From NCBI GenBank assembly GCA_037133595.1, contig JBAXNV010000003.1:1-55583 (forward strand): a stretch of 55,583 bases of DNA, given 5' to 3'. The notes below the pieces were generated by a model, which did no database searches, had not been told where the DNA came from, and saw only the letters and a program-made list of their open reading frames with translations. A program made the position numbers and the translations under genes. This document shows positions 44,284 to 49,981 of the stretch, piece after piece (within the stretch, counting starts at the first letter, position 1; the number at the start of each line of letters is the position of its first letter). Origin of the DNA: a bacterium. GTDB lineage: Bacteria > Patescibacteriota > Microgenomatia > UBA1400 > UBA12108.

Positions 44284-45729
44284 TTATTTTAACTGGGGGA
44301 GTACATCATGTTGGGATGACATGCGATGACGAAGTAAAAATGTAGTATCAGTACCCATACGACTTGAGTTAATCGTTTTGACAAATTGAGTACTAGAATT
44401 TTGATATTGTAGTGAGGTATACAGATCTACAATATCTCTGGGAAGATTCTCTGATCCCCACCCATATACCAAATCTTCTGGGGAACAAATATGAATACTG
44501 TTAATAAATTGTTCCGGAGCAATTCCACTATGAGACTCTAGATACATCTCTCCAAAATTCTGGGTATCTGGTACTGAATAGTATTTGTACTGAAACCCTC
44601 CTTTTTTTGTAGTAAGTCTGTAAATGTCCTGAGAATCGATAATTTTTCTCCTACGCGCAGGTCCTTGCCATTTGCTTTTTGGTGGTGGAGCATCTGGATC
44701 TGGCTCGTATACAATTCTTTTGTTCGGTTGTGAAAACAACAGATCCCCATTTTTGTCCATCCCAATGCGAAATATCTTTTCACTTTCATCTTCATGATTC
44801 TGAATTACTAATTCTAGATCATGATGGGCTTCGACATCTCTTTTCATCAACAAGAGGAGTTTTTTTTGAAGTGAAAAGTTGATATTATGAGACTGCTCTA
44901 CTGAGGCACCGTCAATATACCCATCTAGCTCGATTAGTTCTTGTATTAGCGAGTAACGAAGCAAATGCTGTGTCTCGGTAATATGCTGCGTAAATATTTG
45001 TTTTAATAATGCGGGCGAAGAGAATAAGCGCGTCGTGAGCTCGCTATTTCTTTCTGGATCCGTTACAACAAAGCGCTTGGATAAATCTGGTGTACGTAAA
45101 GCAGATATCTGCCCAATGAGCGAGCTGTCGTTTACATCTAAAGCATAAATTGACCAGCACTTCTGGCCATCGATAGTAATAATCTCAAAAATTGAGTTAT
45201 GGATCAGCTCAGATAGTTGGGTGCTGTCTCTAAGGATTTGTTCTGGATCCTGAGTTTGAGTATCATCGCAAACGGCAACATCTGTTCGAAGGAGTATCGC
45301 CTCGATTAATTCACTGTATTCTCTTTGCAACTCTAGATTTGACTTGGTTTCCTCAGAAGATGAGTTATCTTTTGTAACATATTCTTGTAGCTCTGAGATT
45401 CGCAATTCATTTTCTTCTGGCAATGAAAGTTGATCCGCGACTTGTAGTACTTGATCAAAATCGCCAACATCTACTGGCGCAGGGAATTCGTCAACAATGC
45501 CATCTAGAGCCTCCAACTTGAGTGAGTCTCCCAAACGCAACATCCTTATGAAGTAATCCTCGAACTGCTCCTCAGGAGATATTATATGTGAATGCCTAAG
45601 ATGAGACTCGACTAGATCGATGTGTCGAAATGGATTATGACTAGACAAACTCTTGGCGATAAGTTGCGGCAATATTTGCTCAAAGGCACCTGAGTTGTCT
45701 GGTTCTGGCAAGGATTCAATCTTAGACAT
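44284..45729 (-). CDS. Acidic hypothetical protein
   Basis: Long ORF; the start MSKIESL overlaps the Nudix stop. No motif recognised. Confidence 0.75.
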   Translation of the reverse strand: MSKIESLPEPDNSGAFEQILPQLIAKSLSSHNPFRHIDLVESHLRHSHIISPEEQFEDYFIRMLRLGDSLKLEALDGIVDEFPAPVDVGDFDQVLQVADQLSLPEENELRISELQEYVTKDNSSSEETKSNLELQREYSELIEAILLRTDVAVCDDTQTQDPEQILRDSTQLSELIHNSIFEIITIDGQKCWSIYALDVNDSSLIGQISALRTPDLSKRFVVTDPERNSELTTRLFSSPALLKQIFTQHITETQHLLRYSLIQELIELDGYIDGASVEQSHNINFSLQKKLLLLMKRDVEAHHDLELVIQNHEDESEKIFRIGMDKNGDLLFSQPNKRIVYEPDPDAPPPKSKWQGPARRRKIIDSQDIYRLTTKKGGFQYKYYSVPDTQNFGEMYLESHSGIAPEQFINSIHICSPEDLVYGWGSENLPRDIVDLYTSLQYQNSSTQFVKTINSSRMGTDTTFLLRHRMSSQHDVLPQLK

Positions 45730-46192
45730 GTAGGTTGATACTACCAGCTTTGGAGATTTGCGCAAATACTGCTTCAACCGTTTCCTTGGTCTGAGGAAGA
45801 CAGTCGAGAGTATCTAGCTCTGAAAGGGTAAACCAGCGGTAGCTAGCGGTCTCGTGCTCTGGATCGCGAGTGAGATCAATCGCCTGGTCACCGATATCAA
45901 CAGCATAAGTGAGCAAGAGAATGTGAGCTGTTTCCCAGAGCGCTGTCACGGGGACTGGGTACTTGGAGATATAGCCTAGAGGTCCGTCCCCTAGGGTGAC
46001 GCCAAGCTCTTCTTTGAATTCGCGGATTAATGTTTCTTCTGGTTTCTCTCCCCATTCCATCCCACCGCCTGGAATATTCCATTTGAGATGAAAAAGAGGA
46101 TCGGTTGGTTCGTTGCGCTGTGTAAGTAAAAATGATCCATCTTGCCTAACTGCAAGACCCGTTACTCCAACGGTAATAAATTTTTTACTCAC
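45722..46192 (-). CDS. Nudix hydrolase
   Basis: Nudix box GGGMEWGEKPEETLIREFKEELG; GTG start in a GTGA overlap with the HD gene. Confidence 0.9.
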   Translation of the reverse strand: MSKKFITVGVTGLAVRQDGSFLLTQRNEPTDPLFHLKWNIPGGGMEWGEKPEETLIREFKEELGVTLGDGPLGYISKYPVPVTALWETAHILLLTYAVDIGDQAIDLTRDPEHETASYRWFTLSELDTLDCLPQTKETVEAVFAQISKAGSINLHV

Positions 46193-46743
46193 AGTCCAAG
46201 ATCCACTGCGATAGATTGCATGGCGGTGAGTACCAGGGGGATGTGTTCCTCCCACAAGTCTACGCCAAGCTCTTTGGCACCTTCTTCGACTTCTTGGCGA
46301 TTGACGCCAGCGGCAAAGGCTTTGTCTTTCCACTTTTTTTGGATACTTTTTACCTCGACATCCGCTATCTTTTTACTGGGCCTGACAAGTGCGGTTGTGG
46401 TGATAAGACCAGTGAGCTCATCGACGGCAAAAAGAGCTTTGGCAAGTTGGGTTGTACGTGGTGTGCCAGTGTGACTGCCGTGGCCCATGATGGCGTCTAA
46501 AATCTCCTCGTCAACTCCTACTTCACGCAAAATTGGGATACCAAGAACGGGGTGCTCTGCAGCTGTTGGGTGGATCTCCCAGTCGAAGTCATGGAGAAGT
46601 CCAGCTACTCTATATGTCTCCTCACTCTCGCCGAGCTTTTTGGCATAAGCAGCCATAGCTACTTCGACCGCTAGCATGTGGCGGACTAGATTCTCGTTCT
46701 TAACATACTTTCTGACAATTGTTAGGGCTTCGTCGCGAGTCAT
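46189..46743 (-). CDS. HD (HDIG) domain phosphohydrolase
   Basis: LVRHMLAVE, GLLHDFD, AIMGH, DELTGLI and FAAGVNR motifs. Confidence 0.9.
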   Translation of the reverse strand: MTRDEALTIVRKYVKNENLVRHMLAVEVAMAAYAKKLGESEETYRVAGLLHDFDWEIHPTAAEHPVLGIPILREVGVDEEILDAIMGHGSHTGTPRTTQLAKALFAVDELTGLITTTALVRPSKKIADVEVKSIQKKWKDKAFAAGVNRQEVEEGAKELGVDLWEEHIPLVLTAMQSIAVDLGL

Positions 46744-46745
46744 AG

Positions 46746-47573
46746 TTACCTTTCTTTTGATTCTAATTGTTTGATTGATTTATTACCTACTAAGGAATGC
46801 ATTTGAGATATTGCAGTACTATTAAGACTCATCAATCTCTTTGCTTGAGTTATCCCTTGATTAATGTATAGGGCATTCAAGGATTCTAGATTGGCGAGTA
46901 CCACCAGCTGTGTCACATCTGCGTAGTCCCGAATGTTCCCTGTGAGATTCTTGTGAGAATCGCGCCAATCCCTGGCCGTCTGACCAAATAATGCAACGTT
47001 GAGGACGTCGGCTTCGCTGCCGTAAATTATATTTTCTTGTGATTTGGCGATTGTCTTGGGGATCAAGTTTTCCTTAATTGCATCTGTGTGAATACGATAG
47101 TTGATCTTGGTAAGCTGTCTTTTTACATCCCAACCTAAGGATAGTCTTTCATTTTCAATTTCTTTAAGCCGCTGAAACTCTTTAATTAAATAAAGTCTAA
47201 ATTCTGGGGATATCCAAGTGGCAAACTCAAACGCGATATCTTTGTGGGCAAAAGTCCCCCCGCCATTCCCCGATCTTGAGATTATGCCAATTGCCCCCGT
47301 TTTTTCAATCCACTTTTGTGGTGAAAGGACAAAATAATTTTCTCCGGACTCGGAGCGAAAGGAGTCGAATTCGACCCCTTTGAAATTGGGATTATTGATT
47401 TTTTCCCATGCACCCAAAAAATTAATTGTTGTTCTGGATCTCATCCAGTTCTTTACAATGTCCTTTGGCTCATCTTGATTTTTGTATCGAGCAATATCTG
47501 TGAGCGAAATATAATCTTTGTCATTTTGCACAAAGGTATATATTTCTAGTCCTTGAGTCGCAATTTTCTTCAT
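46746..47573 (-). CDS. KilA-N domain DNA-binding protein
   Basis: DYISLTDIA, NWMR...T..FLG.WE..NNPNF, GGTFAHKDIAFEFA.WISPEF and KINYRIHTDAIK motifs. Confidence 0.9.
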   Translation of the reverse strand: MKKIATQGLEIYTFVQNDKDYISLTDIARYKNQDEPKDIVKNWMRSRTTINFLGAWEKINNPNFKGVEFDSFRSESGENYFVLSPQKWIEKTGAIGIISRSGNGGGTFAHKDIAFEFATWISPEFRLYLIKEFQRLKEIENERLSLGWDVKRQLTKINYRIHTDAIKENLIPKTIAKSQENIIYGSEADVLNVALFGQTARDWRDSHKNLTGNIRDYADVTQLVVLANLESLNALYINQGITQAKRLMSLNSTAISQMHSLVGNKSIKQLESKER

Positions 47574-47767: not shown

Positions 47768-49981
47768 TTATTTTACTACTTGGATTTCTCCAATCTCGCC
47801 ACCACAGAACTTCTTAATATATTCGGCGCCTTTTTGGAGAGCAGAGACAACTTCTTCTTGTGAAAGTCCTGGCGCGCCATCGGCGTAGAGAATAATATCT
47901 TTTGTTTTTTCAGTGATTTTAGTTGCGTCGATGTCTCTGTAATTTAGATCGAGTGTAATCAACTTTTCGGCGTCGGAATATGCAATCTCACCTTCCAAAA
48001 CTATTGTGAGAGCATCGTCTCCAAGGAGCTGCATTTGCTCACCCGACTTGGTTAACGTGAGAGTTACTGGAAAGCTCATTTTGCTTAGATCAAATCCGCC
48101 GAGACCTACGGCGGTCTCAATAACTGCAAGGTTGTACGCGTCGACGGCAGTGTTAATGTTGTAGATACCCTTGCCTGTTGCAAGGCGACGAAGTAGGGCT
48201 TCGGGAGATGGTTTACGACTTTGTTGCCATGCGCCTGTTGCTTTGAAAAGTTTTCGATATTCACTAATTGGTTTGAGCTCACCGATTGCCTCAACATCGT
48301 GGGTGTTTACCGCAATAATTTTGTCTGATAGTTCTTTTAGTTCTGGGTTCGACTTTTGGATATCTACACCTTCGATTGTCGTGAATGCATAGAACATGCC
48401 AGGAAATTTGTCTTTGATCGTTTGATCAATAGTTCCAGAGACTTCACCAGCGACAGCTTTTTTGGCTGGGGCTTCTTCTTTGAGCCCATAAATCTCACGA
48501 GTGAGGGGATCGATGTGACGCTTCATCTGTGGGAACAAAGTACCCTCGCGCGCGGTAACTCCCTCCAAGAACCAAAACAGGCGCTCTGATATCCCAACAC
48601 CTGATGTGGGAGGCATTCCATACTCAAGCATTTCGACAAAATCAATATCTAACATCTGACTCTCAGCGTCACCACTGTCGCGCGCAGATTGTTGCTCCTG
48701 GAAGCGAGCGAGCTGATCCTGCGGGTCATTGAGCTCACTATAGCCGTTGCCAAGCTCACTGCCGGCCAAGATTACGTGGAAGCGCTCGGTTAGCCTCTCG
48801 TCCCCTGGCTTACTTTTGGCAAGCGGCGACATAAACTTGGGCTCGTTGACGAGGAAGGCGGGGCCAGCGATGGTTTTCCTGATTATTTTCCAGAGATTGT
48901 CTATTAGGCGGCCTTTACCACTGCCTGGCTCAAGTTTTATTTTGTGGTCTTTGAGCACGGATAACATTTTTTCTTCGGAATCAGTATAAATGTCGACGCC
49001 CAGTTTTTCTTTAATAACATTGCCAAAGTCGATTTCTGGCCAATCAGCGGCTAGATCGAAAGCGTGTTCTTCGCGGGTGAAGGTGGTTGTGCCATAGACC
49101 TCTTGTGCTATCTTGCGGAACAAGTCGCGAGTAAAAAGCATATTGTCTCGGTAGTCGGCATAAGCCCAGTACCATTCGAGCTGGTAGTATTCTTGGAGAT
49201 GCTCGTCGTCTATGCCTTCGTTTCTAAAGTTGGGGGCAAGGGTAAAGATCTTTTCGTAGCCGCCGCCGATCAGGCGCTTGAGATAGAGCTCGGTACTAAT
49301 GCGCAAGTAAAAAGTTTCATCGAGGGCGTCGTGATGGGTAACAAAAGGCTTGGCATCGGCACCGCCTGTTACATGTTCGAGTACTGGAGTCTCAACCTCG
49401 ACAAAGCCATGGCTAGCCATAAAAGAGCGAGATACAGACCAAAACTTGCTCTTGCGCATAAACATATCGCGACGATCCCGGTTGAGTGTAAGGTCAAGGT
49501 AGCGGCGACGAAACATGAGATCTTTGTCCTCTAGGCCATTCCAGCTATCGGGGAGTGGTCGAAGGGATTTGGTTAACAGATGCACTGCTTTGGCAGCGAT
49601 CGAGATGGCACCAGTTTTGGTTTTGAGTATCGTGCCATCAATCTGAACAAAGTCACCAACATCAAGAAGATTGAGATTGGAAAACCCAATAGTATTATCG
49701 GAAGGATTAGTTGCTACAAGCTCACCATCTTTGACAAAGATTTGAAGCCGCCCGCTCTCGTCTTCGAGATCGCCAAAAATTAGTTTGCCGTGCTCGCGCA
49801 GCGCCATGAGGCGGCCGGTAAGGCTGACTGTTTGGTTTTCGTACTTGTCGAAGTTGGTAATAACTTCTTGGTTGTTGACAGTTTTTTGACTATGGGCAGG
49901 GTAGCCAGAGAGACCCAGAGCTATAAGCTTATTGAGCTTGTCGATCCTAACATTTCGTATTTCTTGAAGTCTAGATGCCAT
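47768..49981 (-). CDS. lysS: Lysine--tRNA ligase (class II) with C-terminal B3/4 domain
   Basis: OB fold, GGADAKPF.THH, YLRISTELYLKRL, FRNEGID, ELGNGYSELNDP and GMPPT.G.G motifs, then 'KPSPEALLRR...INTAVDAYN...G.FDL...YRD...TKI' B3/4. Confidence 0.96.
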   Translation of the reverse strand: MASRLQEIRNVRIDKLNKLIALGLSGYPAHSQKTVNNQEVITNFDKYENQTVSLTGRLMALREHGKLIFGDLEDESGRLQIFVKDGELVATNPSDNTIGFSNLNLLDVGDFVQIDGTILKTKTGAISIAAKAVHLLTKSLRPLPDSWNGLEDKDLMFRRRYLDLTLNRDRRDMFMRKSKFWSVSRSFMASHGFVEVETPVLEHVTGGADAKPFVTHHDALDETFYLRISTELYLKRLIGGGYEKIFTLAPNFRNEGIDDEHLQEYYQLEWYWAYADYRDNMLFTRDLFRKIAQEVYGTTTFTREEHAFDLAADWPEIDFGNVIKEKLGVDIYTDSEEKMLSVLKDHKIKLEPGSGKGRLIDNLWKIIRKTIAGPAFLVNEPKFMSPLAKSKPGDERLTERFHVILAGSELGNGYSELNDPQDQLARFQEQQSARDSGDAESQMLDIDFVEMLEYGMPPTSGVGISERLFWFLEGVTAREGTLFPQMKRHIDPLTREIYGLKEEAPAKKAVAGEVSGTIDQTIKDKFPGMFYAFTTIEGVDIQKSNPELKELSDKIIAVNTHDVEAIGELKPISEYRKLFKATGAWQQSRKPSPEALLRRLATGKGIYNINTAVDAYNLAVIETAVGLGGFDLSKMSFPVTLTLTKSGEQMQLLGDDALTIVLEGEIAYSDAEKLITLDLNYRDIDATKITEKTKDIILYADGAPGLSQEEVVSALQKGAEYIKKFCGGEIGEIQVVK

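Follow-up and report, generated by a model that had tools for sequence, protein, structure and literature searches.

The DNA analysed here is a stretch of 55,583 nucleotides, below called the window, which is positions 1 to 55,583 of contig JBAXNV010000003.1 (GenBank assembly GCA_037133595.1) from a bacterium of the Patescibacteriota (Microgenomatia). On its reverse strand, at 47768..49981, lies an unbroken open reading frame (ORF) of 737 amino acids (aa) with an ATG start. It encodes a class II lysyl-tRNA synthetase (LysRS), a linker and a B3/4 module, a fold known from tRNA editing. That these three form a real gene fusion in one ORF is confirmed. The architecture is conserved but rare, and it is plausibly a new, LysRS-dedicated variant of the CtdA-type deacylase. 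The function favoured here, with a probability of roughly 0.55 on the strength of sequences and structure models, is post-transfer editing: the module would clear tRNA-Lys to which a near-cognate, cationic amino acid has been wrongly attached. What we infer is catalysis, the role of tRNA-Lys as carrier, the type of amino acid that is removed, and any action in cis.

The domains are found without difficulty. In the 737-aa protein, Pfam detects tRNA_anti-codon at residues 52-135 (43.2 bits), the class II D/K/N catalytic domain tRNA-synt_2 at 153-486 (220.9 bits, E 2.6e-65), and B3_4 at 587-727 (70.7 bits with a gathering score of 29.3, E 1.5e-19). Over residues 6-488 the NCBIfam models for lysine--tRNA ligase also score above their cutoffs, NF001756 with 505.7 bits (cutoff 468) and TIGR00499 with 457.9 bits (cutoff 427.6). 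An initial annotation, made from the letters alone, had given the same coordinates, a LysRS of ~490 aa, the linker EEAPAKKAVAG and a C-terminal module of ~220 aa. It was right on each of these.

It had also asked whether the junction might be an assembly error, and this is not borne out. The DNA at the junction is without homopolymer or frame defect. A 24.9-kb contig runs over 48000-49000 with 0 differences; its run is possibly the DNA's own source. A contig from another study's run (X3, record 8) covers 48193-48535, also with 0 differences, and spans B3/4, the linker and the LysRS C-terminus. No indels or joints are listed at 48000-49000 among the contigs of four public runs. More than 100 protein clusters of other assemblies furthermore show the same LysRS-B3/4 architecture.

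The LysRS part looks canonical in its sequence. Its closest solved relatives are the Geobacillus LysRS 3a74 (E 9.7e-110) and E. coli LysU 1e1o (E 5.9e-107). LysU residues E240, R262, E278, Y280, N424, F426 and E428, which we take to be the contacts that bind lysine and ATP, align to E231, R253, E269, Y271, N412, Y414 and E416. The FRNEG of motif 2 and R467 are invariant in 65 aligned fusions.

The host genome measures 947 kb in 43 contigs and is 99.25% complete. The fused gene is its sole LysRS. The only other match to the LysRS models is a 346-aa paralogue of the catalytic core, which is EpmA (330 bits, cutoff 286.9), and no class I LysRS reaches the cutoff in this 99.25%-complete genome. The fused enzyme is therefore essential in the host. 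Given its status as the sole LysRS, we infer that it is the housekeeping enzyme that charges tRNA-Lys. EpmA is the lysine aminoacylase of EF-P, and its retention in a genome of this size (contig C18:3762-4799, locus L004) is an observation in its own right.

Elsewhere in the genome, PheT alone has a further B3_4 domain, and a gene for a YbaK-type editing protein is present. No member of PF02580, a family of D-aminoacyl-tRNA deacylases, was found in the 99.25%-complete genome.

An AlphaFold model of residues 507-737 has a mean predicted local distance difference test (pLDDT) of 95.1 and a predicted template modelling score (pTM) of 0.91. Foldseek matches this model to the CtdA structures 9f7e and 9mkl with a template modelling (TM) score of 0.82 (E 4e-16) over 229 of 231 columns. 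PheRS-beta B3/B4 domains reach a TM of ~0.62 (E 1e-9 to 3e-12), and all significant structural matches are one or the other. A single-sequence search against solved structures also puts CtdA 9f7e first (E 4.9e-5) and PheRS-beta second. When a profile is built that includes stand-alone relatives, 9f7e is found at E 1.9e-32 and 9mkl at E 9.8e-31, versus ~1e-15 for PheRS-beta. Because CtdA beats PheRS-beta in both profile and Foldseek, the module is assigned, on sequence and model, to the CtdA branch of the B3/4 fold and not to the PheRS-beta type. The initial annotation had spoken of stand-alone B3/4 motifs and had named both the PheRS-beta editing domain and CtdA. The stand-alone, CtdA-like half of that description survives; the PheRS-beta editing domain is the more distant of the two.

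CtdA is a stand-alone canavanyl-tRNA(Arg) deacylase (PDB 9f7e, 9mkl; PMC12449066, PMC10018355, PMC12268091) and the closest characterised protein. The module resembles it in whole-length fold and as the best profile match, and the 229-column match includes the helical insert that is specific to CtdA. Unlike CtdA, which is free-standing and ~230 aa long, the module is the C-terminal domain of a LysRS, and it has no association with ArgRS. It is 18-21% identical to the solved CtdAs. The module also sits in a clade separate from most of the stand-alone proteins, and its hosts, the Candidate Phyla Radiation (CPR) bacteria and DPANN archaea, are unlisted in the published survey table (PMC12449066 Table S2, as far as available).

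The pocket of CtdA consists of N105, G116, E118, C166, Q173 and I189 (PMC12449066). The variants N105A, G116H/W and Q173G are all inactive. C166 tunes specificity and is strictly conserved in the CtdA-1 group, and position 173 is Q or E (PMC12449066). These residues were mapped by profile alignment to 9mkl, in which the SEQRES index is the paper's numbering plus 2 (checked at N105, G116, C166, Q173, A95 and I189). In the fused protein they correspond to N617, G628, F630, T676, D683 and Y699. This means that the essential N105 and G116 are retained as N617 and G628, and that C166 and Q173, which govern specificity, are not, having become T676 and D683. E118 and I189 are replaced as well, by F630 and Y699. 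The initial annotation had made its reading depend on an intact editing pocket; the essential pair is in place and the four specificity positions are changed. Since C166 and Q173 are replaced and the module is not free-standing, it should not be filed as a canavanyl-tRNA deacylase (CtdA-1).

The replacements are themselves conserved. Of 156 fused domains, 155 keep the Asn at 617 and 155 the Asp at 683, and position 628 holds Gly in 148 and Ala in 8. Position 630 is nearly always aromatic (Phe in 144, Tyr in 11). At 676, Thr predominates with 127 domains, followed by Asn (13) and Cys (11), and at 699 there are 79 Phe and 45 Tyr. Four of the six positions equivalent to the CtdA pocket are at least 90% conserved, compared with 44 of 223 over the whole domain (hypergeometric P 0.015); the remaining two are 81% Thr and 80% Phe/Tyr. 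N610, D614, Y668, D670 and R682 are further invariant residues of the fused clade. The sequences thus suggest a catalytic framework that has been kept, with the specificity positions swapped for another, equally conserved set made of an Asp and aromatic walls. Such a pocket would fit a different side chain, probably a cationic one.

The module as a whole is also under stronger purifying selection than the synthetase core it is attached to. Its mean top-residue frequency is 0.65, versus 0.58 for the core. Median identity to the window's protein is 56% for the module and 41% for the core, and the module is the more similar part in 54 of 64 rows.

The nearest group within the family may be CtdA-2, described as a clade of stand-alone B3/4 proteins from archaea, Chloroflexi and Bacillota in which N105 and G116 are kept and C166 is not (PMC12449066). 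The fused clade has the same pattern. Among named genomes, the nearest stand-alone relatives of the window's domain come from archaea (Hadarchaeota, Bathyarchaeia, others); these CtdA-2-like proteins are 222-290 aa long and 32-38% identical to it. A Bathyarchaeota B3_4 protein is listed among the CtdAs in Table S2 of the same paper. Unlike the fused modules, CtdA-2 is described as free-standing and no LysRS link is mentioned for it; the comparison is with the published description.

PheRS-beta, in which the B3/B4 domain hydrolyses Tyr- and m-Tyr-tRNA-Phe, is the precedent for proofreading by this fold in cis within a synthetase. The core fold is the same, and one Asn is shared (PheRS N254, here N617). 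PheRS-beta is far more distant than CtdA, however (profile E ~1e-15), and its inserts differ. When the E. coli PheRS set R244, N254, Y255, H265, F267, A312, G318 and E334 was mapped, N254 was the one residue that could be placed with confidence; the alignment is weak. The specificity residues of PheRS also differ between CtdA and PheRS themselves (PMC12449066).

A LysRS with a second module is not entirely without parallel. The LysX protein of mycobacteria, also called MprF-LysRS, is an extra LysRS copy fused to a lysyl-phosphatidylglycerol synthase, a second catalytic module that uses Lys-tRNA-Lys. To our knowledge it is the one well-known LysRS of this kind. The LysRS part of the fused protein gets 423 bits on the NCBIfam model for LysX. 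This is far below the cutoff of 742, and the match covers the LysRS part only. Unlike LysX, the fused protein has no MprF domain, and it is the sole LysRS of its genome.

Relatives of the module were sought in two ways. A word-index search with the C-terminal 243 residues gave 152 proteins of 405-1290 aa at E<=1e-3. An exhaustive search of 1.84 billion representatives gave 1761 at E<=1e-3, 554 at E<=1e-10 and 40 at E<=1e-30. A set of 284 retrieved proteins was then sorted by phmmer with our own queries, with Pfam spot checks. The largest fused classes are LysRS2-B3/4 with 93 proteins and LysRS1-B3/4 with 48, where the digit is the LysRS class. There are also 10 LysRS2-B3/4-HD, 3 LysRS2-B3/4-DUF2000, 2 LysRS2-HD-B3/4 and, as scored, 1 K1-K1-B3/4, along with a few others. 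B3/4 only was found in 120, many of which are contig-end fragments; the short close relatives of the module are nearly all contig-end fragments of fusions.

A FastTree phylogeny of 246 domain rows places the C-terminally LysRS-fused domains in one group of 162 rows (support 88), with an inner clade of 154 rows (support 95, starred). Most of the 'stand-alone' rows that fall within the fused clade are fragments. In this group the labels of the two LysRS classes are intermixed: there are 27 class I label changes, at least 13 of which are forced by starred branches. For 13 of the 48 class I-fused domains the closest domain is on a class II LysRS, with up to 78% identity. The fused relatives are accordingly one clade that sits on both of the unrelated LysRS classes, with repeated switches of partner, in CPR bacteria and DPANN archaea.

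A separate clade of 70 rows (support 93) is mostly stand-alone and holds the N-terminal fusions. There, Pfam finds a stand-alone-type domain at the N-terminus of ArgRS (P0209 and P0281, once duplicated), of class I LysRS (P0270), of class II LysRS (P0272), and of a protein with a YbaK domain and a class I W/Y-type synthetase (P0260). A related domain is joined to tRNA_bind domains in P0150, P0171 and P0268. A CtdA-like domain on ArgRS would be the cis form of the known pairing of CtdA and ArgRS. These sister-clade fusions, which include the client of CtdA, indicate that the CtdA-like family goes with tRNA machinery generally.

The tree is best read without a root. Even with a threshold of E 10, phmmer does not connect the B3/4 domain of the host's own PheT with the domain in the window, and as an outgroup the PheT domain was rejected: its branch was 4.3 long and joined another long branch. 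The root is therefore unreliable, and the tree does not separate gain from loss.

Named genomes supply a census of loci. A relative of the module is encoded by 398 of 429 pattern hits, and the best 80 of these 398 loci were studied. They comprise 34 LysRS fusions (23 class II, 11 class I), 2 contig-cut B3/4 genes, 1 B3/4-DUF2000 gene and 43 stand-alone genes, which encode 222-332 aa and one of which is truncated by the end of its contig. Relatives in named genomes come from Microgenomates, WWE3, Paceibacterota, Saccharimonadia and similar CPR groups. The stand-alone genes are nearly all archaeal (Hadarchaeota, Bathyarchaeia, Asgard-like and others), and four fusions are in archaeal records, namely a Woesearchaeota (L052), an archaeon (L054), a Nanoarchaeota (L073) and one labelled Methanosarcinales (L069). 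In locus L074, a stand-alone copy directly follows a class I LysRS gene.

Two side observations belong with the architectures. P0038, of 457 aa, has two tandem B3/4 modules of the LysRS-fused clade and no synthetase part. DUF2000 (PF09391) occurs as an add-on behind LysRS-B3/4 or together with HD in P0044, P0045, P0148, P0157 and P0340 and in locus L053. DUF2000 presumably has a fold like that of peptidyl-tRNA hydrolase; if so, it would be a second type of tRNA-ester hydrolase on LysRS. It was not found in the host genome, and control genomes likewise gave no hit.

The proposed mechanism would run as follows. LysRS charges tRNA-Lys, and at times the amino acid attached would be a near-cognate, probably one with a positive charge. 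Guesses at its identity are arginine, ornithine or a similar short diamino acid, and an analogue of lysine from the host or the environment. The mischarged 3' end would be caught by the tethered B3/4 pocket before EF-Tu takes it. N617 would position the hydrolytic water, G628 would give room, and D683 together with F630/Y699 would read the side chain. The ester bond would then be hydrolysed, while cognate lysine would be barred by the size or chemistry of the pocket and guarded by LysRS and EF-Tu. CtdA offers a model for this protection, as it reads the aminoacyl moiety and leaves cognate Arg-tRNA to be protected by the synthetase and EF-Tu (PMC12449066).

The tether would raise the local concentration of deacylase where tRNA-Lys is released. 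The linker has a mean top-residue frequency of 0.20, versus 0.58 in the catalytic domain and 0.65 in B3/4. In a full-length model each module is confident, pLDDT drops below 50 at residues 507-512, and the whole-chain pTM is 0.68. Because the linker is predicted to be disordered and the pTM is at this level, the module is best seen as tethered, not docked.

Two lines of sequence evidence carry the proposed editing function. Fusion to both LysRS classes, in both orientations and with partner switches, ties the module to lysine or tRNA-Lys. The conservation of the essential residues and of the pocket ties it to catalysis. The initial annotation had left open whether the module proofreads tRNA-Lys or is a tethered editor for another tRNA. 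The repeated fusion to both LysRS classes favours the former.

The module is also part of a wider and seemingly unreported association of LysRS with HD proteins in CPR and DPANN organisms, which the initial annotation missed, as it did the LysRS-HD fusions without B3/4 and the class I LysRS fusions. Near the fused gene, an HD gene encodes a protein that aligns from end to end with the HD modules that follow B3/4 in two fused proteins, with 42% identity to P0039 (E 5e-33) and 32% to P0091 (E 9e-30). Of 36 loci linked to LysRS, 6 have a fused HD and 22 have HD as a separate same-strand gene no more than 4 kb downstream, for a total of 28. The downstream HD genes often abut or overlap the stop codon of LysRS-B3/4. 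HD was not found in 8 of the 36, one of which ends 96 bases past the gene, and it is absent from all 43 stand-alone B3/4 loci. On these sequences the window's HD protein is regarded as the split-off third component of the LysRS-B3/4 unit. A complex prediction of the full-length LysRS-B3/4 with the HD protein gave a score of 0.00 and a mark of 0.32, which counts neither way.

HD is tied to LysRS far beyond the B3/4 fusions. Among the long relatives of the HD family, 43 of 56 are LysRS2-HD proteins without B3/4, and these include the five closest (68-76% identity). In a phylum sample of 401 evenly drawn genomes, 160 have the HD family at E<=1e-10. Among the HD matches listed, 49 of 150 lie in open frames of at least 680 aa, not each confirmed as LysRS. 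The metal ligands H22, H51, D52 and H88 (H...HD...H) are invariant. The best solved relatives of the HD protein are YqeK-type symmetrical hydrolases of diadenosine tetraphosphate (Ap4A), namely 8jja (E 3.2e-4), 2ogi and 2o08; the 8jja match covers ~53 N-terminal residues only. The curated YqeK model TIGR00488 gives the HD protein 17 bits with a cutoff of 70.15. From its sequence, then, the protein is best called a member of the HD/HDIG superfamily and nothing narrower. It probably belongs to one functional unit with the fused enzyme, where Ap4A, as a LysRS product, or a 3'-end phosphate of tRNA would be guesses at its target.

Several results weigh against tRNA-Lys editing. When 93 B3/4-bearing LysRS cores are compared with 24 HD-only ones, their active sites do not differ in any systematic way that could account for a need to edit. 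The B3/4-bearing cores are more variable, with Tyr at 271 in 77 of 93, Asn at 412 in 62, and Tyr at 414 in 56 with Trp in 37, versus 24, 23 and 23 of 24 for the HD-only cores at these positions; the two groups are not phylogenetically independent, and the window's own residues are canonical. No position splits the two groups, and a relaxed LysRS active site in the B3/4-bearing enzymes was rejected as an explanation.

The fusion is also rare and patchy. In the phylum sample, 41 of 401 genomes match at E<=1e-5, mostly with partial, PheT-looking hits. At E<=1e-30 there are 10, including the host, with frames of 753-953 aa save for one contig-end fragment. None of five genomes of the same order has the fusion. 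With about 2-3% of the sample carrying it, most relatives manage without.

Within the module, the window's copy is atypical at T642: of the 156 fused domains, 142 carry Arg at this position and 6 carry Lys. The position is probably not catalytic, because CtdA has Val there. The changes at four of the six pocket positions mean that the substrate, and even the chemistry, could differ. The equivalent Asn of PheRS can be replaced (N254A) with almost full activity kept (PMC12449066), and the conservation of N617 is therefore no proof of catalysis. In the full-length model, finally, the position of the B3/4 pocket with respect to the active site of LysRS is not predicted with confidence.

Some of these points would equally suit a module that does no chemistry at all. 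It could be a tRNA-binding or hand-off appendage, akin to Trbp111/EMAPII-type domains, which raises the affinity for tRNA-Lys or holds its acceptor end. The tRNA_bind domains in the relatives named above show that additional contacts with tRNA are selected for, the Arg that most fused domains have at 642 is missing from the window, the LysRS core has no change that points to a need for editing, and the PheRS mutant shows that a conserved Asn need not be catalytic. A binder of the RNA backbone would, however, not be expected to have the CtdA-pocket positions among its most conserved ones, nor to retain both residues whose mutation kills CtdA, and the sole characterised members of the family are hydrolases. 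An appendage is thus unlikely, if the best of the alternatives.

Less probable again is an active deacylase that works in trans on some other aminoacyl-tRNA, such as canavanyl- or analogue-tRNA-Arg or D-aminoacyl-tRNAs, with LysRS as an abundant scaffold. The closest characterised enzyme does work on tRNA-Arg, and what it recognises is the amino acid, not the tRNA; the long disordered linker is compatible with action in trans. The missing PF02580 fits as well; that the B3/4 module stands in for an absent D-aminoacyl-tRNA deacylase was considered and rejected, since it leaves the exclusive link to LysRS unexplained, and is kept only as a part of this alternative. The same exclusivity counts against a scaffold in general. 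The clade is found on both LysRS classes and in both orientations and stays there through at least 13 partner switches, while ArgRS fusions occur separately, in the sister clade. The CtdA specificity residues C166 and Q173 are, moreover, replaced.

About as improbable is a metabolic or regulatory role in which B3/4 and HD act on a non-tRNA product of LysRS, such as lysyl-AMP, Ap4A or their relatives. Class II LysRS is a major source of Ap4A, HD is tied to LysRS even where B3/4 is missing, the best solved relatives of HD are Ap4A hydrolases, and a Nudix gene follows HD in the window and several related loci. The YqeK match is confined to the N-terminal part of HD, though, and its model falls well short of the cutoff. 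HD also follows class I LysRS-B3/4 genes (L026, L027, L031, L034, L037, L038), and the B3/4 proteins of known activity all act on aminoacyl-tRNA.

That an assembly or gene-calling artefact joined two genes can practically be dismissed: the genome is a metagenome-type assembly and the fully covering run may be the DNA's own source, but the junction is clean and in frame, a contig from an independent study bridges the linker, and the architecture recurs in 93 class II and 48 class I fusion proteins, from many assemblies, and in 34 named-genome loci.

The features of the window that bear on the fused gene are collected in Table 1.

Table 1. Parts of the fused gene and genes around it, in window coordinates.
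Feature	Position	Strand	Contents or evidence
Nudix hydrolase gene	45725..46180	-	Follows HD here and in 7 related loci (L020-L025, L027)
HD/HDIG metal-dependent phosphohydrolase, 184 aa, second gene after the fusion	46189..46743	-	Pfam HD 35.6 bits; NCBIfam HDIG 40.8 bits
KilA-N domain gene, 275 aa, between LysRS-B3/4 and HD	46746..47573	-	Pfam KilA-N 77.2 bits
Stop codon of the fused gene	47768..47770	-	
CtdA-like B3/4 module, residues ~516-737	47771..48436	-	Pfam B3_4, structure model, Foldseek, profile
Linker, residues ~491-515 (with EEAPAKKAVAG, 502-512)	48437..48511	-	Low conservation and predicted disorder
Class II LysRS part, residues 1-490	48512..49981	-	Pfam and NCBIfam above cutoffs
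Contents of the LysRS part			N-terminal helix; OB anticodon-binding domain 52-135; catalytic domain 153-486; motif 2 FRNEG 252-256; motif 3 R467
Aldolase-like protein, 449 aa	51653..53002	-	Weak class II fructose-bisphosphate aldolase match, 60.6 bits, residues 79-351

The KilA-N gene has a GC content of 0.37-0.40, versus 0.44-0.51 for the flanking genes, and no homologue of it was found among the ORFs of the 80 related loci. For these two reasons it is regarded as a lineage-specific insertion and not as part of the module. Relatives have other, unrelated ORFs of 250-330 aa in the gap between LysRS and HD, which seems to be an insertion hot spot. The longest call for the Nudix gene starts at a GTG at 46333 and overlaps HD by ~145 bases, and the true start is therefore probably further downstream. 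A GreA gene precedes the fusion in 23 related loci. The aldolase-like protein lies beside PGK, is much longer than the 277-position model it matches, and may be a divergent or extended aldolase. A tRNA scan of the window gave 0 genes, and a promoter scan was at chance, with 8 found and 7.7 expected.

Full-text searches of the literature found no description of a LysRS-B3/4 fusion, and likewise none of a LysRS-HD association. The text of PMC12449066, as far as available, has no mention of LysRS, lysyl, fused, fusion, Patescibacteria or Candidate Phyla, and the available part of its Table S2 has none of lysine, Patescibacteria and Microgenomates. A word look-up in the accessible text of PMC12268091 gave no mention of LysRS or fusion. 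The available text of PMC8464048 describes a degenerate HD domain in GlyRS-beta, not LysRS.

LysRS controls errors in its active site and by pre-transfer cyclisation of homocysteine, homoserine and ornithine. We know of no post-transfer editing domain in this synthetase. A conserved CtdA-type deacylase on the sole LysRS of a genome challenges this picture, because two structurally unrelated LysRS classes have repeatedly recruited it. It amounts to a natural experiment, which points to a fidelity problem specific to lysine in organisms that depend on scavenging for their amino acids. The CtdA-2 branch gains a functional lead from it, and the much commoner association of LysRS with the HD family comes to light.

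Taken together, many CPR and DPANN organisms may have a hitherto unrecognised quality-control unit based on LysRS, with an HD phosphohydrolase of its own and, in some of these organisms, a CtdA-2-like B3/4 proofreader of tRNA-Lys. This larger picture is tentative, at odds somewhat short of even. If it is true, LysRS would gain a true editing site, and the CtdA-2 branch would get its first function, in tRNA-Lys editing. It would also imply a specific look-alike of lysine that these scavenging organisms must keep out of their proteins.

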